Positions 50,647 through 62,347 of a DNA stretch of 64,000 nt are shown in pieces. A model generated the notes under the pieces. It was not told the DNA's origin. It ran no database searches and worked only from the letters and a program-made list of their open reading frames with translations. The stretch's first letter is position 1. The number at the start of each line of letters is the position of its first letter. The position numbers were made by a program, and so were the translations under genes. Source of the DNA: Bacteroidetes bacterium UBA6161 (GTDB lineage: Bacteria; Bacteroidota; Bacteroidia; NS11-12g; UBA955). Where the stretch lies: positions 30,882 through 94,881 of the forward strand of contig DIUJ01000068.1 in NCBI GenBank assembly GCA_002422315.1, given 5' to 3'.

Positions 50647-51732
50647 ATGATAGACTTCAACTTTCTTTTAGTTAATAGATTGATTATTCATACAATTAAT
50701 GCTAAACAAGATGGACAAGATAGTGCTAGTGTAGACGCTTCAAATGAAATTTCTGAAATAGACCATTATGTTTTAGAAATTATCAGAAACCGTCTCATTG
50801 ATGCCGCTGGTCGTAATTCAAAAGCGTTTGAACTTGAAATAGAAAATTCAAATTCGGACTCGTTTTTTGAACTATCAAGCGAAATGTCTGAACTTGACGA
50901 AACTGCATTTATTCAACGTACAACAGAAATTGCTGAACTTTTGGCAGACAGTCAAAGAAGAGTATCAATTCCTGGAGGCTATCTTCTGATTTTGGATTGC
51001 TTAGATAATGAAAGCAACCTTCCTATAATCATTGTTATTAAAGCAGAACCACACGAAGCATTACAATTTTCAATAAATGGTGGACATACTCAAGTGAGTG
51101 TTTTACATAAAGTTTTTCTTTCACCTTCTCAAAAACTTTACAAGATTGGTATCATTTACAAAAAAACTGAAGAAGAAACAGAGAACGTAAATGAACAATT
51201 CGGTTGTTTCTTATATGACGATCAGTTTAGGACAGATACTCATCCTGCCGAATATTTTTATAAAGACTTCTTAGGTTTTACAGTAGGGAATAATGCAAAA
51301 ATTCAATCTCAAAGATTTTATGATAAGACCAAAAGCTTCATTTTGAAAAATGTACAAGACTTAGAAACAAAAACACATTTGGTCTCAGCATTAAAAAATG
51401 AGTTTTCAATTAACCAAAATGACACAGTCGATCCAATTAATTTTGCGAATACTTACATTCCAACAGAAAATGGTTTGAGAGATACCTATATTGGTGACGT
51501 TTGTCATGAACTTCCACTTGCTATTGTTAAAGACGATAGCTTAATAAAAATAAAATTAGCTAAACGAAAAATAGATTTTCCAAGCAATATTAATCTAACA
51601 GGACCAGAAGAAGGCTTTGACAATAGAGTGGAAATTATAAGTGATTTAGAAACTATTCAAAACCTTGAAGCTGACAATCCTAATTATACTATTGTAAAAA
51701 TATCAGGCAAGCCGTATTCTTCAAATGAATAA
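50647..51732 (+). CDS. hypothetical protein, possibly nucleoid-associated NdpA/YejK-like
   Basis: N-terminal 'LLVNRLIIHTI' pattern as in NdpA-family proteins. Overlaps the downstream gene by 8 nt. Confidence 0.3.
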   Translation: MIDFNFLLVNRLIIHTINAKQDGQDSASVDASNEISEIDHYVLEIIRNRLIDAAGRNSKAFELEIENSNSDSFFELSSEMSELDETAFIQRTTEIAELLADSQRRVSIPGGYLLILDCLDNESNLPIIIVIKAEPHEALQFSINGGHTQVSVLHKVFLSPSQKLYKIGIIYKKTEEETENVNEQFGCFLYDDQFRTDTHPAEYFYKDFLGFTVGNNAKIQSQRFYDKTKSFILKNVQDLETKTHLVSALKNEFSINQNDTVDPINFANTYIPTENGLRDTYIGDVCHELPLAIVKDDSLIKIKLAKRKIDFPSNINLTGPEEGFDNRVEIISDLETIQNLEADNPNYTIVKISGKPYSSNE

Positions 51733-52708
51733 CAAGGAACAAGAAATATTAGAGCAGTTCAACTCAATTAAACCACATTTGAAAATTTGGGGCGAAATTG
51801 TAGATACCTATCTTGTAAATAAACTCTTGCAAGATATGATAGAAGAGCACCTAATTAAGATTTATCCCTGCTTTAGGATTAAAGATGATAAGTCTTATCT
51901 ATTTAAAGCCTTATACAGGAAAAAGAACTATCGAAATCCTATAGAAAATATTGAAGACAAAATAGGAACAAGGATAGTAGTTTTGAAATCTGACGATATA
52001 AAAATTGTTCAACAAAAAATTCTAGAAGCAAATTTTTGGGTATCAAAACTCACTAAGAATATAGACCAAGAAATAGAAGACAAGCCAAATATATTTGATT
52101 ACCAATCTTCACACATTATTGTTAAACCATTGGGTAAAGATGAAAATTTCCCAAATGAAGTAATCAACTCATTAACCTGTGAAATCCAAATTAGGACACT
52201 ATTGCAACATGCATTTGCAGAAGTGAGCCATGATAGCACATATAAAGGCCCTTATAAGAATGACAAAGAAATACTTCGCAAATTAGCAAAAGCAATGGCT
52301 CTAATGGAAGCCACTGACGATTATTTTTGTAATATTTTTAAAATGATGTCAGATGAGAAAAGGCATTATGCACTTTATTTAAAGGAGTTGATTAACTTGT
52401 TTAGACAATTTAAAGAAGATTTTGACAATGATGAACTAAACTTATTCATAACTGACAGCATTTTTGACCTATTGGAATGTGAAAATATTTCAATTCAAGA
52501 ATTGGAAGTTTTCACTGCAAAGCACTATTCAGACCTGGTAAAATATATTCAGCCACAAAACGGACTATTATTTCAGCAGCCAACAATCATTTTGATACTG
52601 TATTATTTTTATAATAAGAGGACGTTTTTAAAGGATAATTGGACTCTTGATACAGAAGCTTTAAAAAGAATTTATCAAGTCACTACTACTTCATTTAATT
52701 CATATTAA
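51725..52708 (+). CDS. RelA/SpoT-domain nucleotidyltransferase (small alarmone synthetase-like)
   Basis: 'GTRIVVLKSDDI' (G-x-R motif) and 'SHIIVKP...CEIQIRTLLQHAFAEVSHDSTYK', which is the (p)ppGpp-synthetase 'EIQIRT...WAE..H...YK' signature. Confidence 0.65.
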   Translation: MNNKEQEILEQFNSIKPHLKIWGEIVDTYLVNKLLQDMIEEHLIKIYPCFRIKDDKSYLFKALYRKKNYRNPIENIEDKIGTRIVVLKSDDIKIVQQKILEANFWVSKLTKNIDQEIEDKPNIFDYQSSHIIVKPLGKDENFPNEVINSLTCEIQIRTLLQHAFAEVSHDSTYKGPYKNDKEILRKLAKAMALMEATDDYFCNIFKMMSDEKRHYALYLKELINLFRQFKEDFDNDELNLFITDSIFDLLECENISIQELEVFTAKHYSDLVKYIQPQNGLLFQQPTIILILYYFYNKRTFLKDNWTLDTEALKRIYQVTTTSFNSY

Positions 52709-52927
52709 AACATACTTGGTTTTGCTTTTAAAGCAGGGATTGTATAAAATGCCCTTTTTTGTTGAACTAAATTTAATTAAAGTTATTTCTAATTCGGCCA
52801 TTAAGTGATATGATTACTTTTTTAAAACTATATTTTAACTTGGGTTTTAAATTTTAGAAATTACTATTGAAATCAAATCAACTTAATTTGCTTTGCCAAA
52901 AAAAAGTATTTTTTTTGTTAATTATCT

Positions 52928-53206
52928 TCACGGCTCCCCAATAAACCTTACCACCAACCTAACCTGTTCTGGAGTGAGGGTACGCAGACCTTTTTTAAAT
53001 CCTGTTTCTAGGAGTTCGCAGTGTAAGGCTTCATTTCGTTCTATCCAGGCTCGAAGGCGAGCAGAAGCACTTTTGCTACTTATGTTGGGCATGTAGAGTT
53101 GAGCGAGCTCTCCAAACCCATAAGTCCTAATTCTGAATTCCCCATCATTCATGCAGCAAAAGTAGAAAATACAAATTCTCAGTGTTAGTGCATAGTTCGG
53201 AAGCAA
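52928..53206 (-). CDS. DUF4248-domain protein
   Basis: 'FRIRTYGFGELAQLYMP...ARLRAWI...TPEQVRLVVRFIGEP' matches the Bacteroidetes DUF4248 pattern. Confidence 0.6.
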   Translation of the reverse strand: MLPNYALTLRICIFYFCCMNDGEFRIRTYGFGELAQLYMPNISSKSASARLRAWIERNEALHCELLETGFKKGLRTLTPEQVRLVVRFIGEP

Positions 53207-53247
53207 TTTGGAATTTTTTGCCCACTATTCAAATCATATCTCTATAA

Positions 53248-53293
53248 AGGGCAATGGGCAATCCTATATATATATAGGATTGCCCATTGCCCT
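53248..53293. promoter_or_regulatory. 46-bp perfect palindrome with AT-rich centre plus direct ATTGCCC heptamer iterons
   Basis: 'agggcaatgggcaatcctatata|tatataggattgcccattgccct'. Further 'attgccc' copies at 53317 and 53376. Confidence 0.5.
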
Positions 53294-53381
53294 AGAGGGG
53301 TGATTATGAAAATAAAATTGCCCTAAAACCTATATTTATCAATACTTTAAGACAATAAATTTCCATGCAAAATGCATTGCC

Positions 53382-53885
53382 CTACAAAAGGGTCAATTTA
53401 TCCCATTTTTTAACCCAAATAAACTTGCCATTTAATTTAGATTTTTCCAAAATTTCTGCGTTTTTAATTCCATAAGCAATCAAAACAGAAGGAGCTCCTG
53501 CACTGTCACCTTGGGTGCCGTTACTATGGTAAAACCGTATTCTGCCTTTTAAAAACAAAACCGCATCTGCTTTACTCCATACCTGTTCAAAAAACATCTT
53601 GGTTTCTGTTCTAGCAAAGGTAAGAGCAATGCAATTGCCATGGGCTACACACTTATCTAACCATAGGTTTGTTTCATTGCCATAAGGAGGATTGCACCAA
53701 ACCCTGCCAGTCCAGGGTTTGGTTAATCCATTGTCTAAAAGTGTAAAGTGTTTGGTGGCTGTATCCCAGGGACGCTTTACAGGACTACATGGGTCTAAGT
53801 CAAATTTACCCAATGCACGTATTAATTCCGGAGGGGTTAGCCACTCATCTTTACCTGTTTTATTCCTTTCAAACGAAGTATCCAT
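53382..53885 (-). CDS. phage-type DNA N6-adenine methyltransferase (Dam, T4-Dam-like family)
   Basis: 'DEWLTPPELIRALGKFDLDPCS' and 'CNPPYG' are characteristic of the phage Dam family. Confidence 0.7.
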   Translation of the reverse strand: MDTSFERNKTGKDEWLTPPELIRALGKFDLDPCSPVKRPWDTATKHFTLLDNGLTKPWTGRVWCNPPYGNETNLWLDKCVAHGNCIALTFARTETKMFFEQVWSKADAVLFLKGRIRFYHSNGTQGDSAGAPSVLIAYGIKNAEILEKSKLNGKFIWVKKWDKLTLL

Positions 53886-53895
53886 AATTCTCTTC

Positions 53896-55131
53896 TTATT
53901 TGGCCATTTCCATTTTCGTTCTTAAAGACATTCCCATCATTTCCTGGGCTATTTTCTTATCTACAATTCGCGCGTAATGCTGTGTACTTTTAATGTTCGA
54001 GTGTCCAAGCATACGACTAACAGATTCTATGGAAACCCCATTTTGAAGGGTTACAGTTGTTGCGAAAGTATGCCTGGCTACGTGGTAAGTAAGCTTTTTT
54101 TCTATTTGGCAGAGATCCGCAATTTCTTTCAGATAGGCATTTAGTTTCTGATTGCTCAATACAGGCAACACTTTGTCATTTGCCCTTAATTGTGAAATAT
54201 CTGCGTACTTATCAATGATCCGTTTGGCAATATCTAACAGAGGAATTTGGCTTCGCTGTTTGGTTTTTTGTCTTCGGGTTTTAATCCACCACATACCATC
54301 TGGTGTACGTTCTAGCTCTGCTTTGGTAAGTTTTGCTACATCCGCATAAGCGAGCCCTGTATAGCAGGAAAATAGAAACAAGTCACATACATGTTCAAGC
54401 CTTTGGAAATCGAATTTCTTGCTTACCAAACGCTGTAATTCTTCATCGTCTAGGTAAGGCCGGTCTGTTTCCTTTAAGGTGAGTTTAAAGCCATCGAAGG
54501 GGTCGTTTTTTATCCAATTTGAACGTATAGCTCGCATGGTGATTTTTTTGAGGAATTGCAGAAATTTAATAGAGGTATTGTAGGTGCAATCTTTTTCAGC
54601 CATAATATACTGGTGAAACTCACGAATCACATTGTACTTAACGGATGCAATAGGCATATCTTCCATTCGATAGTAGGATTTTAGGAAGGCATGGAAATGA
54701 TTTCGGGTAGTGTTGTGTTTTTGCCACAAGGTGTAGGAGCATTGTTTTCCAATGGTCTTTTTCAGTTCTGTGTTGTGTTCATCCCAAATAGCCAGGATAG
54801 TGCGAGCTTCACCATTGTGAATGCCGAACATGTAGTCTCGAATCATGGCAGCAGTAATGTGGTCTGTGTCGCGTGTAAGTTCTGTAAATGCAGCATAGGC
54901 CTTGGAACGTAAGGTTTCAATGAATAGGGTAATTTCCCTTGTGTATTCATCTTTGTTGTACGGAGTTCCGCGACTTTGGTTCCAATCTTCAGGGTTTACA
55001 CGCCTTCGGATAAAGGTAGCCACTTGGCTTCCATTAATGGTGATACGGAGCATGATAGGAGCTCCTTCATTGTTGGTTTTAGCTCTGTTGAGGTAAAACA
55101 TGAGGTTGAAAGTGTTTTTTCTTGACGACAT
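53896..55131 (-). CDS. tyrosine-type site-specific integrase (Bacteroidetes phage integrase with Arm-binding N-terminus)
   Basis: C-terminal 'HVARHTFATT...MLGHSNIKSTQHYARI' (R-H-R-Y catalytic set). N-terminal 'FYLNRAKTNNEGAPIMLRITING' arm-binding domain. Confidence 0.85.
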   Translation of the reverse strand: MSSRKNTFNLMFYLNRAKTNNEGAPIMLRITINGSQVATFIRRRVNPEDWNQSRGTPYNKDEYTREITLFIETLRSKAYAAFTELTRDTDHITAAMIRDYMFGIHNGEARTILAIWDEHNTELKKTIGKQCSYTLWQKHNTTRNHFHAFLKSYYRMEDMPIASVKYNVIREFHQYIMAEKDCTYNTSIKFLQFLKKITMRAIRSNWIKNDPFDGFKLTLKETDRPYLDDEELQRLVSKKFDFQRLEHVCDLFLFSCYTGLAYADVAKLTKAELERTPDGMWWIKTRRQKTKQRSQIPLLDIAKRIIDKYADISQLRANDKVLPVLSNQKLNAYLKEIADLCQIEKKLTYHVARHTFATTVTLQNGVSIESVSRMLGHSNIKSTQHYARIVDKKIAQEMMGMSLRTKMEMAK

Positions 55132-55454
55132 AAAAATTTAGTTTGTGTCTAGGTGTTTTTTGTCGTTAACCAAAAAGGGTAACGATTATTTACACTTTTG
55201 ACGGGTTGTCGTCCTCACTTCGCGATGCAAAGGTAAAAGTTAACAGTTACCTTTTGCTTTGCATAATGTTGCATATCAAGGCATTAAGTTGGAACCCTAA
55301 AAAATCGTTACCTCCGTTACCCCCAAAAAAAAGGGTAACGATTTGAATAATTTAAAGTGCCAAAACATGCATTTTTCTGCCAACCTTAGAAAACAAAAAA
55401 CCCTGTAAATGCCATGATTTACAGGGTTTTGCCAAGAACGTTCCTCTTGACATG

Positions 55455-55539
55455 CGGAGAGAGAGGGATTCGAACCCCCGGACCTGTAACAGTCAACGGT
55501 TTTCAAGACCGCCGCATTCGACCGCTCTGCCATCTCTCC
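55455..55539 (-). tRNA. tRNA-Ser (anticodon TGA)
   Basis: Reverse complement 'GGAGAGATGGCAGAGCGGTCGAATGCGGCGGTCTTGAAAACCGTTGACTGTTACAGGTCCGGGGGTTCGAATCCCTCTCTCTCC'. 7-bp acceptor stem, anticodon loop CTTGAAA, long variable arm, and T-loop TTCGAAT. Confidence 0.85.
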
Positions 55540-59299: not shown

Positions 59300-60148
59300 A
59301 TGTCAGTAAAAATAATTGAGTGCCCAAGAGATGCCATGCAAGGCTTGTCAAAGTTTGTTCAAACAGAGGATAAAATATTGTATATTAACAAGTTGATTGA
59401 TGTAGGTTTTGATTTTCTAGACTGTGTTAGTTTTGTTTCTCCCAAGTCTGTTCCTCAAATGAGAGACAGCAATAAGGTGATTACTCAATTGAATTCTTCT
59501 TCTAAAACGTCATTTATTGCCATAGTTGCCAACTTAAGAGGTGCTCAAAACGCAGTTTTATATCCAAATATTTCAGTAGTTGGCTTTCCTTTTTCGGTTT
59601 CTTCTCAGTTTCAATTAAGAAATACCAACAAATCCCAAGAGCAATCTGTTCAGGAGGTTATTGCCATTAAACAAGAATTGGATAAACACAACAAGGAAAT
59701 GGTTTTGTATTTGTCCATGTGTTTTGGAAATCCCTATAAAGAGGATTGGTCAATTTCTTTGGTTTTAGAATGGGTAAAGGTATTTGCTGATTTAGGAATT
59801 CGGGTTATTTCTCTGAGCGATACAGTAGGTATAGCAAAAAACAAGGATATTTTCGAAATATTTACCATTTTGCAAAAAGAATACCCTGCAATTGAATTTG
59901 GTGCCCATTTGCACACACGCCCCCACGACTGGGAGTTAAAACTAGAGGCTGCATATACCGCGGGTTGCAGGCGTTTTGATGGTGCAATGAATGGATTGGG
60001 TGGATGCCCTTTTGCAACAGATTCTCTTACGGGCAATTTGTCTACCGAAAATTTAATTCATTTTTTAAGCAAACAAGGAGTAAAATTGGATTTGAATATG
60101 GATGCTTTTGAAGAGGCAAGAATGATGGCCACTCGGATTTTGGGTTAG
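59300..60148 (+). CDS. HMG-CoA lyase-like (HMGL family) protein
   Basis: 'VKIIECPRDAMQGLSKF' N-terminal motif plus an aldolase/TIM-barrel region. Confidence 0.65.
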   Translation: MSVKIIECPRDAMQGLSKFVQTEDKILYINKLIDVGFDFLDCVSFVSPKSVPQMRDSNKVITQLNSSSKTSFIAIVANLRGAQNAVLYPNISVVGFPFSVSSQFQLRNTNKSQEQSVQEVIAIKQELDKHNKEMVLYLSMCFGNPYKEDWSISLVLEWVKVFADLGIRVISLSDTVGIAKNKDIFEIFTILQKEYPAIEFGAHLHTRPHDWELKLEAAYTAGCRRFDGAMNGLGGCPFATDSLTGNLSTENLIHFLSKQGVKLDLNMDAFEEARMMATRILG

Positions 60149-60200
60149 ACTTGAACCTTTATCTCTTTAATATCGTATTGATTATTAAAAACATGTGTGT

Positions 60201-60908
60201 GGTTGGTGAAAAACACCAACCACGGCGTATATTTTTAAGTTCTCGTAGGAAATGTCATGGTGAGGTTCTCGAACCACGACATTTCCTCTCTTTAATGGTT
60301 CGAGAGCCTCACCATGACAAACTCTTTTTTCCTTTTGTTGGTGTTTGTCTGTCCCCAATTTATTGGTGGACCACCTACCAACCGCAAAGCATCAGAGATC
60401 AGTCTAGTTTTCCTTGTGATTGGTGAAAAACACCAACCACGGCGTATATTTTTGAAATGGTTGATGGCCCGCCGTGCATGATGAAGAAAATGGAGTAAGG
60501 AGTGGTTGATGAAAAACACCAACCACGGCGTATATTTTTAAGTTCTCGTAGGAAAAGTCATGGTGAGGTTCTCGAACCACGACATTTCCTCTCTTTAATG
60601 GTTCGAGATCCTCACCATGACAAACTCTTTTTTCCTTTTGTTGGTGTTTGTCTGTCCCCAATTTATTGGTGGACCACCAACCAACCGTAAAGCATCAGAG
60701 ATCAGTCTAGTTTTCCTTGTGGTTGGTGAAAAACACTAACCACGGCGTATATTTTTAAGTTCTCGTAGGAAATGTCATGGTGAGGTTCTCGAACCACGAC
60801 ATTTCCTCTCTTTAATGGTTCGAGATCCTCACCATGACAAACTCTTTTTCCCTTTGGTTGGTGTTTGTCTGTCCCCAATTTATTGGTGGACCACCAACCA
60901 ACCGCAAA
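60201..60908. repeat. tandem array of structured repeats (4 x 36-bp hairpin module A, 3 x ~180-bp module B)
   Basis: Module A 'ggttggtgaaaaacaccaaccacggcgtatattttt' at 60201, 60418, 60504 and 60721. Module B at 60237, 60540 and 60757 carries a ~22-bp-stem hairpin plus T-run. Confidence 0.85.
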
Positions 60909-60910
60909 AA

Positions 60911-62347
60911 TTAGTCTAATTTATTCCTAACTATTTCATTTACCTTTTTTGGGTCTGCAGAACCTTTGGAAAGTTTCATTACCTCTCCTACAAACAAACC
61001 TAATAATCCTTTTTTGCCATTTTGGTATTCGGCTACTTTTTCTGGCATACTTTCCAATACCTTTAAAACCCAATTCTCTAGTTCTTCGGAATTAGTATTT
61101 TGTAAAATATTGTTTTTTGTAGCTATTTCTATAGGTTCTAAAGAAGGATTGGCAATAAGTTCGGGAAGAACTACAGATACTGCAGCCGTGTGGCTAATGG
61201 TATTTTCCATTACCAATTGGATTAATTTGGAAAGCTGTGTAGGATTTAACGGGAAAAGTGAAATATCTTTTGCTTGTTCGTTTAACCAAGATTTTATGGG
61301 GCCTAAGATCCAATTTGCAGCTGTTTTAGCATGTTTGCATTGTGCATACAATTCAGTAAAATAAGCGGCTGTATCTCTATCTTCTGTGAGTACTTGTGCA
61401 TCATAATCTGAAAGGCCTAGTTGTTGTGTGAATTTTTCAAATAATGCTTTGGGTAATTCTGGTAAACTTATTTTTACCTTATCCAAAAACTCTTGGTTTA
61501 TGATGAAAGGGGGTAAATCTGGTTCTGGGAAATAACGGTAATCTTGGGCTTCTTCTTTGCTTCGCATGGAAATAGTGCTACCATTGGCAGCATTAAAGCT
61601 ACGGGTTTCTGATACAATTTTTTCTCCTGCCAATACCGCTTCTGTTTGACGTTTTATTTCAAATTCTATGGCTCTTTTTACATTGGTCATAGAATTCATG
61701 TTTTTTACCTCTACTTTAGTTCCAAAGGTTTGGGAGCCTACAGGTCGTATGGAAATATTGGCGTCGCAGCGCATGCTTCCTTCTTCCATGTTTCCATCGC
61801 ATATATCCAGGTATCGCACCAGTTTTCTAATTTCGGAAACAAAGTGGTAAGCCTCTTCTCCGCTTCTAATTTCTGGTTCGCTTACTAATTCCACCAAGGG
61901 TACACCTGCTCTGTTGTAATCTATCAAGCTGTCGTATAGGTCTTGGTCGTGCATGCTTTTACCAGAGTCTTCTTCCATATGAATTCTGGTAATGGTAATT
62001 TTTTTGTTACCATTGTTGCTAGGTATTTCTACAAATCCGCCTGTGCAAATTGGGGTTTTGTCTTGAGATATTTGATATCCTTTGGGCAAGTCGGCATAGA
62101 AGTAGTTTTTTCTAGCATATCCATTTAATTGGGTAATGTTGCAATGAAGAGCAAGCCCTAGTTTTGTGGCATATTCAATGGCAGAAATATTGTGCATAGG
62201 AAGTGTGCCTGGGTGGCCTAAGCTTATAGCACTTACCAATGTATTTGGGGATTCGCCATACAATGCACTGTCTGCACAAAAAGCTTTGCTTTGAGTTTTT
62301 AACTGAATATGGATTTCTAATCCTATAACTGCTTCAAATTCTTGCAT
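60911..62347 (-). CDS. gatB: aspartyl/glutamyl-tRNA(Asn/Gln) amidotransferase subunit B
   Basis: 'MQEFEAVIGLEIHIQLKT' N-terminus and a GatB/YqeY C-terminal domain. Confidence 0.9.
   Translation of the reverse strand: MQEFEAVIGLEIHIQLKTQSKAFCADSALYGESPNTLVSAISLGHPGTLPMHNISAIEYATKLGLALHCNITQLNGYARKNYFYADLPKGYQISQDKTPICTGGFVEIPSNNGNKKITITRIHMEEDSGKSMHDQDLYDSLIDYNRAGVPLVELVSEPEIRSGEEAYHFVSEIRKLVRYLDICDGNMEEGSMRCDANISIRPVGSQTFGTKVEVKNMNSMTNVKRAIEFEIKRQTEAVLAGEKIVSETRSFNAANGSTISMRSKEEAQDYRYFPEPDLPPFIINQEFLDKVKISLPELPKALFEKFTQQLGLSDYDAQVLTEDRDTAAYFTELYAQCKHAKTAANWILGPIKSWLNEQAKDISLFPLNPTQLSKLIQLVMENTISHTAAVSVVLPELIANPSLEPIEIATKNNILQNTNSEELENWVLKVLESMPEKVAEYQNGKKGLLGLFVGEVMKLSKGSADPKKVNEIVRNKLD

Follow-up and report, generated by a model that had tools for sequence, protein, structure and literature searches.

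What is a dense cluster of palindromes, repeated in tandem between two protein-coding genes, likely to be: a set of genes, a set of signals, or a repeat that has multiplied on the spot? This question is raised by positions 60199-60908 of a 64,000-nt stretch of contig DIUJ01000068.1 of Bacteroidetes bacterium UBA6161 (hereafter the window, to which coordinates refer unless another locus is named), where an array of palindromes separates the gene for an HMG-CoA-lyase-like protein (HMGL) from gatB. An initial annotation proposed a cluster of small structured RNA genes or, alternatively, a composite element related to repetitive extragenic palindromes (REP) or miniature inverted-repeat transposable elements (MITE). 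We consider it probable that the array arose by recent tandem amplification, specific to the strain, of a stretch of non-coding spacer, and that its core hairpins belong to a repeat family that flanks GIY-YIG nuclease genes in many phyla. The composite-repeat alternative was close to the evidence and essentially right; it can be refined in that the array is a tandemly amplified cluster, resembling a bacterial interspersed mosaic element (BIME), of hairpin repeats like those of the Ssn nucleases described below.

The array consists of three copies of a 217-nt unit, the last one cut short at gatB, plus an 86-nt partial copy (Table 1). Two periods were detected by Tandem Repeats Finder, one of 303 nt (1.8 copies, 97% matches) and one of 217 nt (1.9 copies, 96%). 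Module A was matched four times (60201, 60418, 60504 and 60721; 0-1 mismatch, 0 expected in shuffles), and the long hairpin and the second palindrome block of module B three times each, with none expected in shuffles; no further copy of module A, the hairpin arm or the second palindrome block was found in the rest of the 64-kb window. The module counts of the initial annotation are confirmed in this way, as is the order A-B-A-(unique)-A-B-A-B', the unique piece being 48 nt long. Its statement that the array lies upstream of gatB had to be corrected: gatB is read from the minus strand (62347..60911), and the array lies 3' of gatB and also 3' of the plus-strand HMGL-like gene, in a convergent spacer. 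The feature first described as an imperfect 22-bp hairpin is a real long hairpin, with 24-nt arms that are 96% complementary and a 19-nt loop, but its identity is that of an inverted doublet of a smaller hairpin, in which a complete hairpin unit forms the left arm and an inverse partner unit with a decayed 5' stem forms the right arm. This doublet is the core of the 217-nt unit, which as a whole is a mosaic of palindromic modules and contains GGTTGGTG four times.

The origin of the array can be followed in relatives of the same organism that keep the gene order DUF349 / HMGL / gatB / YqeY / ComA. In locus L141, whose GatB is 95% identical, only 61 nt separate the two stop codons; this spacer lacks module A and the hairpin units, and what it carries is only a short hairpin that corresponds to the B2 outer stem, minus the 23-nt inner block. 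In L137 and L138, whose HMGL proteins are at least 90% identical, the spacer of 248-250 nt holds exactly one 217-nt unit, and in the window and in L119 it measures 762 nt. The copy number of the unit is accordingly 0 in L141, 1 in L137 and L138 and 3 in the window; a covariance model of the hairpin finds 0, 2 and 6 hairpin units, respectively, the six in the window all at this one locus. The 31-nt spacers that follow units 1 and 2 resemble the place in L138 where the single unit meets gatB: 28 of 32 positions match, and the match takes in the gatB stop codon and last codons. Because each internal junction is a copy of this boundary, with about 19 nt from the 3' end of gatB, the array is, as read from these junctions, a recent, strain-specific local tandem duplication of the segment that begins with module A and reaches about 19 nt into gatB, and was not built from independent insertions or from independently maintained genes. 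The three units differ pairwise by 4-5 uncompensated substitutions, each unit having changes of its own.

A hairpin repeat family across phyla

The hairpin of the array has relatives far outside this organism. In a collection that represents each species by a single genome, we searched for one arm of the hairpin, the 21-mer CATGGTGAGGNTCTCGAACCA (20 specified bases), which by our estimate is expected by chance about once in 596 Gb. It was found at more than 115 loci in at least eight phyla, distributed over the candidate phyla radiation (CPR), Chloroflexota, Bacteroidota, Spirochaetota, Chlorobi, Nitrospinota and the Gamma- and Deltaproteobacteria. The hairpin of the family is 27-40 nt long, with a stem TGTCAYSS.../...SSRTGACA that is variable but compensated and a conserved loop TTCGAGAGCCTCA. 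Its conserved apex is YCAYSS-T-TCGAGAGCCTC-A-SSRTGR, in which TCGAGAGCCTC is an 11-nt loop closed by a T-A pair. The inner stem alternates between CATGG/CCATG, CACCC/GGGTG, CATCC/GGATG and others, and its outward extension is made of complementary bases specific to each locus. The family loci contain 176 such hairpins, compared with 3 in shuffled sequence. Covariation was assessed on 86 distinct copies, whose inner pairs were partly selected by the filter and whose outer six were not: 75% of the cells were paired, versus 58% in column shuffles and 29-46% with the partner slid, both-sided changes occurred at 13 of the 14 pairs, and the covariation score of 0.45 (versus 0.20) was exceeded in none of 500 shuffles.

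The family avoids genes, since only 17% of the hairpins lie within proxy genes, versus 78% of random positions. The hairpins occupy tandem, convergent and divergent spacers (13 divergent cases) and show no clear preference of orientation relative to genes (45:30). Mismatches that would be of the G-U type on one strand or the other are about equally frequent (40 G-T versus 36 A-C), and a run of at least four T follows 13% or 6% of the hairpins, depending on the strand read, against a background of 8%. Although singlets occur, most copies form inverted doublets; the inverse-forward doublet is the commonest arrangement (30 of 50 neighbouring pairs, median gap about 11 nt), and the doublet of the window is alike, with a gap of about 10 nt. 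What recurs in other genomes is the hairpin alone, without a promoter-like box or a T-run. Rfam searches of the window at the gathering threshold, of the array region at E up to 10 and of 18 related loci returned only a tRNA elsewhere and sub-threshold noise. The repeat is thus extragenic, shows neither strand bias nor an excess of G-U pairs, is followed by T-runs at about background frequency and has no Rfam match, as would be expected of a REP-like repeat at the DNA level rather than of a standard terminator or a conserved RNA gene.

When translated, the hairpin accounts for the spurious peptides MVRLSNH, PFESLRVT (FESLRVT), FDKLRVT and GSTSSP, and the open reading frames (ORFs) of the array in the window are of the same kind. 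A literature search with the peptide and DNA strings gave no match. We also observed that some hairpin units at CPR and gammaproteobacterial loci (L107:~2750-2850, L042, L090 and L040:4227-4265) carry a second, perfect palindrome in the loop, for example GAGG-AGTCCGCCCCGGGCGGACG-TCTCGAA, suggesting that the hairpin loop may be an insertion target.

Could the array simply be transcription terminators? The hairpins would then be ordinary bidirectional terminators or 3'-end stabilisers of two convergent genes, duplicated by chance, and the likeness across phyla would reflect a favoured terminator hairpin that has nothing to do with a nuclease. The convergent location fits, as do the T-run behind the long hairpin and the terminator-like character of module A on the plus strand in a simple scan; moreover, REP elements are described as acting in 3' untranslated regions (bioRxiv 10.64898/2026.03.23.713779). 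However, the near-background frequency of T-runs in the family and the presence of hairpins in divergent spacers do not fit, and conservation of a 13-nt loop sequence in eight phyla is unexpected for terminators. In addition, this proposal leaves the direct bracketing of GIY-YIG genes unexplained, and the relative with the 61-nt spacer gets by with one small hairpin. We therefore regard it as unlikely that the array is nothing else than a set of terminators.

The cluster of small structured RNA genes favoured initially is unsupported, and we hold it to be highly unlikely. It would require plus-strand transcription that starts from the TATATTTT box and stops at the T-run, with the transcript adopting the long-hairpin fold, and would yield an RNA of about 100 nt encoded in several copies. 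The box, which had been likened to the Bacteroidetes -7 element, is a partial match to a Bacteroidetes-type promoter (TTGG-N21-TATATTTT) and, judged by its sequence, not a full one; sigma-70-like matches are found at each module A (7 sites versus 2.9 expected), the plus-strand fold is very stable relative to shuffles (z = -6.6), and the hairpin is followed by a T-run. Against these features stands the history of the locus, with the unit missing in a 95%-identical relative, single-copy in others, and duplicated together with a piece of gatB. The minus strand folds better than the plus strand (z = -7.75), the substitutions between copies are uncompensated, and neither the conserved part of the family, which is the hairpin without box or T-run, nor its lack of orientation bias and of G-U excess is what an RNA gene would predict; the Rfam search, too, found no family matching the array.

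Two further RNA candidates were dropped. A tRNA-like reading of GGTTCGAGA has no tRNA match in the region at E up to 10, and K-turn or hammerhead-like loops would need GA/AG or CUGANGA cores, which are missing from the strands.

GIY-YIG genes beside the hairpins

Ssn proteins are stand-alone GIY-YIG proteins of the family cd10448 that are bracketed by hairpin repeats, named NTS in Neisseria and SRM more widely; they bind the repeat as single-stranded DNA only and in one orientation, cut a few bases upstream, and in N. meningitidis their activity on NTS modulates transformation (Chenal et al. 2025, Nat Commun, PMC11893778). GIY-YIG genes also adjoin the hairpins of the family described here. 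The loci selected by the motif contain five GIY-YIG ORFs, four of which lie within 70 nt of a hairpin, where we estimate the chance of such proximity at about 5-10%, given the few hairpins per 8-kb locus. The layout is inverse unit, gene, forward unit in L040; inverse and forward units, gene, forward unit in L075; three inverse units, gene, forward and inverse units in L095; and gene, forward and inverse units, on one side only, in L007. Samples collected from the protein side led to the same nuclease cluster and the same kind of unit at L127/128, L130, L132 and L136, and with L132 and L136 the genes flanked on both sides number five. Database homologues often read into the unit (P0002, P0005, P0010, P0015, P0068, P0088 and P0102), ORFs entering it giving the peptides FDKLRVT, GSTSSP, FDSAQDD and HGELVEP. 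Homologues in Algoriphagus, Dyadobacter, Sphingomonas and Methylobacterium have a unit of the same kind on one or both sides, with loops of 12-14 nt (TTCGACTTCGCTCA and similar); such variants beside GIY-YIG genes are missed by the strict covariance model, which assumes an 11-nt loop, and were found by pattern scans. Flavobacteriia homologues (L124, L129, L143) lie amid other palindromes that keep the 5' half YGTCA-N-TTCGAG.

The proteins bracketed by the large-loop hairpin are encoded by small stand-alone GIY-YIG genes and share the motif ...YYTGVTNDL..EKQIKKWSRAKKEALI. In an all-against-all BLAST comparison they form a large-loop cluster of their own, associated with TTCGA-N-CTCA-loop hairpins. 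It is separate from an SsnA-type cluster (N. gonorrhoeae, S. meliloti and a Spirosoma plasmid), which goes with NTS-like or other short-loop hairpins, and from a YazA/UPF0213-type cluster (B. subtilis YazA and L071), in which the L071 gene is unflanked and the flanks of YazA have no covariance-model match. NCBIfam has no family for the large-loop nucleases, and a PDB search with them returned UPF0213 structural-genomics entries only. In layout the system is like that of Ssn and SRM, and its nucleases are at most candidate members of the defined Ssn family.

A member of this cluster in L124-L126 (1501-1797 in L124) is bracketed by 36-nt inverted repeats (TGTCCGTTCGAGTAGCGAGGTACGAGCATATCGAGAA); it adjoins cas2-cas1 in a Bacteroidota metagenome-assembled genome (MAG) and is present on more than 100 contigs.

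How might such repeats have given rise to the array? By analogy with SsnA and NTS, extrusion of the hairpin would occur while the DNA is in single-stranded form, during replication, transformation or repair. The hairpin would then be recognised, and the DNA cut nearby in trans, by a cognate GIY-YIG single-strand DNA endonuclease whose gene lies elsewhere in the genome or has been lost, and sites cut in this way would become prone to insertion, deletion and unequal recombination; nuclease recognition could thereby play a role in the spread or amplification of the repeat. At the locus in question, nicking or stalling at extruded hairpins, together with the many short direct and inverted repeats, would favour the unequal recombination or slippage by which one unit could expand to three, and the local result would be a change of copy number from 0 to 1 to 3 or more. 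In the other genomes, the repeat and the GIY-YIG gene that it brackets form a repeat-gene-repeat layout like that of an insertion sequence (IS). The hairpins and T-runs may incidentally end or stabilise both convergent transcripts, in which case hairpin A and the doublet, each with its T-run, would mark the end of the HMGL transcript. More tentatively, and with somewhat less than even confidence, we propose that the TTCGA-N-CTCA-loop hairpins and the GIY-YIG cluster they bracket may constitute a second, undescribed partnership of nuclease and hairpin repeat, parallel to Ssn/NTS and spanning CPR, Chloroflexota, Bacteroidota, Spirochaetota and Proteobacteria. This partnership might have its own recognition code, namely a paired YGTCA foot and a conserved large loop, and the array of the window would be a non-autonomous cluster of its target sites.

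Several observations weigh against our main explanation of the array. The window and the 6 kb beyond it, about 70 kb in all, contain no GIY-YIG gene, and the association of nuclease and hairpin comprises about a dozen loci, part of them selected by the motif. The large-loop nucleases score 38-50 bits against N. gonorrhoeae SsnA and 62-76 bits against UPF0213/YazA, and the published SRM pattern, HGTCWYN(0-2)YYVSBRHN(0-5)WNVSBRGN(0-2)RNCYNB, matches no variant of the unit and nothing in the window, whereas NTS controls match. Modules A and B2 are confined to this species, which leaves part of the unit unexplained; two metagenome pattern scans for them gave no match, in a collection that evidently lacks a JGI contig known to carry B2. 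Finally, the only more distant relative, L142 (72% identity), has other neighbours and a different synteny, and the step between the spacers of 61 and 250 nt may have been an insertion or the reverse deletion.

The array itself matters little, being a strain-variable non-coding amplification between two housekeeping genes that breaks short-read assemblies and yields spurious ORFs. The wider family has more to offer: the hairpin explains a very common class of hypothetical peptides, as well as contig breaks, in MAGs of many phyla, and is tied to a cluster of small GIY-YIG nucleases. If the large-loop nucleases act like SsnA, they would add further sequence specificities to the one family of endonucleases known to cut single-stranded DNA site-specifically. 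If true, this would suggest that pairs of nuclease and hairpin shape genome dynamics far beyond Neisseria, including the tiny genomes of the CPR.

Features, surroundings and assembly of the array

Table 1. Features of the array and its flanking genes, in window coordinates; bit scores are those of the hairpin covariance model.
Feature	Position	Strand	Evidence or remark
HMG-CoA-lyase-like gene, left flank, 3' end towards array	59300..60148	+	Pfam HMGL-like E 3.6e-21; exact protein on other contigs with the same neighbours
Unit 1, 217 nt	60199..60415		
Module A, copy 1: 10-bp hairpin GTGGTTGGTG-AAAAA-CACCAACCAC, then GGCGTATATTTTT	60199..60236	+	terminator-like by scan; not in relative L141
Module A, further copies	start 60416, 60502, 60719	+	pattern match
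Complete hairpin unit 1: AGGAAATGTCGTGG-T-TCGAGAACCTC-A-CCATGACATTTCCT, stem 15 bp, conserved loop 11 nt	60247..60287	-	inverted repeat I21; 43.5 bits (60248-60286)
Complete hairpin units, equivalents	60550-60590, 60767-60807	-	counterparts of hairpin unit 1; 36.6 bits (60551-60589), 43.5 bits (60768-60806)
Partner unit 1, inverse orientation, TGGTTCGAGAGCCTCACCATGACA, own 5' stem degenerate	60296..60319	+	inverted repeats I1, I4, I7; 32.2 bits
Partner units, equivalents	60599-60622, 60816-60839	+	as partner unit 1; 25.1 and 25.1 bits
T-rich tail AACTCTTTTTTCCTTTT behind long hairpin	60320..60336	+	partly kept in empty-site relative (L141) as TTTCCCTTTGC
Module B2: outer stem GTTGGTG...CACCAACC around 23-nt block with palindrome TTGGTGGACCACC	60337..60384; copies 60640, 60857	+	
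Junction spacer: copy of unit/gatB junction including ~19 nt of gatB 3' end and stop codon	60385..60415; second copy 60688-60718	+	
Partial unit: module A and 48 nt without match elsewhere in the window	60416..60501	+	independent JGI contig L120 agrees
Unit 2, complete, 217 nt	60502..60718	+	4 substitutions relative to unit 1 in first 186 nt
Unit 3, ending at true gatB stop	60719..60908	+	
gatB, right flank, 3' end towards array	60911..62347	-	478-aa ORF; GatB_N and GatB_Yqey domains on identical protein

A few details of these features deserve mention. The 23-nt block of module B2, TGTCCCCAATTTATTGGTGGACC (60351-60373, 60654-60676 and 60871-60893), begins with TGTC and lies within a hairpin loop, the corresponding hairpin of L141 being intact and shorter; the block looks like a separate small palindromic insertion. 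The 48 nt peculiar to the partial unit (60454-60501) match nothing in the window or in the loci fetched, and include a 13-codon ORF (MVDGPPCMMKKME). The ORFs that span the array have no Pfam match, which supports the view of the initial annotation that they are repeat artefacts. Public gene callers nevertheless place a 77-aa protein across unit 1 (window 60193-60426, equal to L119:10894-11127), in which the hairpins are translated (…CHGEVLEPRHFLSLMVREPHHDK…); it has no family match and is missing in relatives without the unit.

A probable integrated element beside a tRNA gene occupies about 50647-55539 of the window, in coordinates converted from the L119 gene table. It comprises the tRNA (55455-55539, minus strand), a tyrosine integrase (~53896-55131) and, to the left of the integrase, Dam methylase, DUF4248, RelA_SpoT and NA37 genes. 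The GC content is 0.335-0.341 across 50-54 kb, versus about 0.41 over the 10 kb before.

The module order is independently confirmed. An ENA contig of 139.5 kb (L119) carries a 762-nt spacer identical to that of the window, and JGI contigs from another sample agree with its first 483 nt and last 172 nt, both breaking within the array; one of them, L120, shows no difference across unit 1, the partial unit and half of unit 2, where it ends. That a single repeat was mis-assembled or expanded, for which the ending of short-read contigs from three samples inside the array (JGI L120, JGI L116 and Logan L121) might speak, is very improbable in view of these agreements and of the distinct substitutions in each copy. 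The number of units is only partly verified, and short-read assembly could have under- or over-called it.

In a contig from another sample (L122:1540-1590, equal to the window from 60218 onward), 99.5% identity extends as far as mid-module A (…GAAAAACACCA). The 50 nt that follow have no match in the window, and represent either a different spacer allele or a chimeric contig end.

Comparison with known hairpin repeats

Gene clusters for small RNAs resemble the array in their repeated units of about 100-200 nt and in combining a strong hairpin with a T-run; they differ in that here the transcription unit is not conserved, near-identical relatives have 0, 1 or 3 copies, and no Rfam family applies. 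As to MITE features, the unit ends share only GGTTGGTG / CACCAACC, and no clear duplication is seen at the boundary between L141 and L138; neither the window nor two metagenome scans yielded another copy.

The likeness to the REP, REPIN and BIME repeats of Proteobacteria is closer. These are also multi-copy, imperfect extragenic palindromes, common at gene 3' ends, whose inverted doublets fold to a long hairpin (REPIN), and BIME-2-like clusters are, like the array, tandem mosaics with other motifs whose copy number varies by strain. The differences concern the absence of a GTAG tag and of a nearby REP-associated tyrosine transposase (RAYT), and the loop, which is conserved across phyla here while REPs are described as species-specific (PMC6006769). 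That the array is a REPIN or BIME moved by a RAYT of the IS200/IS605 type would fit the extragenic imperfect palindromes, their inverted doublets and clusters, and the RAYT subclasses with atypical hairpins reported in Bacteroidetes (PMC6006769), but it can hardly be correct, given that the hairpin foot reads TGTCA / CTCA / TTCA and not GTAG/GTGG, that the gene next to the repeats is a GIY-YIG nuclease, and that no homologue of E. coli RayT came up when the 3,925 ORFs of the window and the 115 loci were searched by phmmer at E up to 10, a limited sample since RAYT is usually single-copy per genome.

The CGTC-tagged repeats share further traits with the family: a TGTC/CGTC tag followed by AT at the start of the stem, a predominance of head-to-head dimers, the lack of a dedicated tyrosine transposase and a presence in Bacteroidetes, Chlorobi and Spirochaetes (PMC3733652). 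Their stem measures 8-9 bp and their loop 4-5 nt, and they end in an unpaired CCA tail, whereas the large-loop hairpin has a loop of 11-14 nt, a paired tag and no unpaired tail. The NTS correspond to these dRS3 or CGTC-tagged repeats, which were without an identified transposase when Di Nocera et al. described them in 2013 (PMC3733652).

This leads to Ssn and NTS/SRM. The layout of the N. gonorrhoeae ssnA locus was reproduced: the gene lies among eight NTS copies, all within 1.3 kb. It should be noted that the record used (L131, NZ_CP119142.1), labelled as an N. gonorrhoeae plasmid in PLSDB, has the size of a chromosome, 2.17 Mb, and that the ssnA frame in it has no obvious in-frame ATG. The two systems differ in several aspects: the conserved loop is 11-14 nt long (TTCGA-N-CTCA) here and 4 nt in NTS/SRM, the TGTCA tag is base-paired in the hairpin here, and the window has no nuclease gene. 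The large-loop nucleases form a separate BLAST cluster and, with 38-50 bits against N. gonorrhoeae SsnA and a tblastn E-value of 5e-4 in the plasmid collection, score below the E < 1e-10 against N. meningitidis SsnA that the published study uses. On the other hand, both systems consist of hairpin repeats of 20-50 nt that are almost wholly extragenic and frequently arranged in inverted pairs and clusters, and in both a stand-alone GIY-YIG gene of about 95 aa is bracketed on both sides, in Neisseria in one case and in other genomes carrying the large-loop family in the other. The 5' signature YGTCA(Y) of the repeats and the C-terminal motif EKQ(I/L)KKW(S/N)R of the nucleases are common to both. 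Chenal et al. point out the IS-like layout of Ssn and its repeats and the parallel with RAYT and REP (PMC11893778). Set beside these systems, the array itself is ordinary, and the repeat family together with its nuclease cluster looks like an undescribed variant of this recently described kind.

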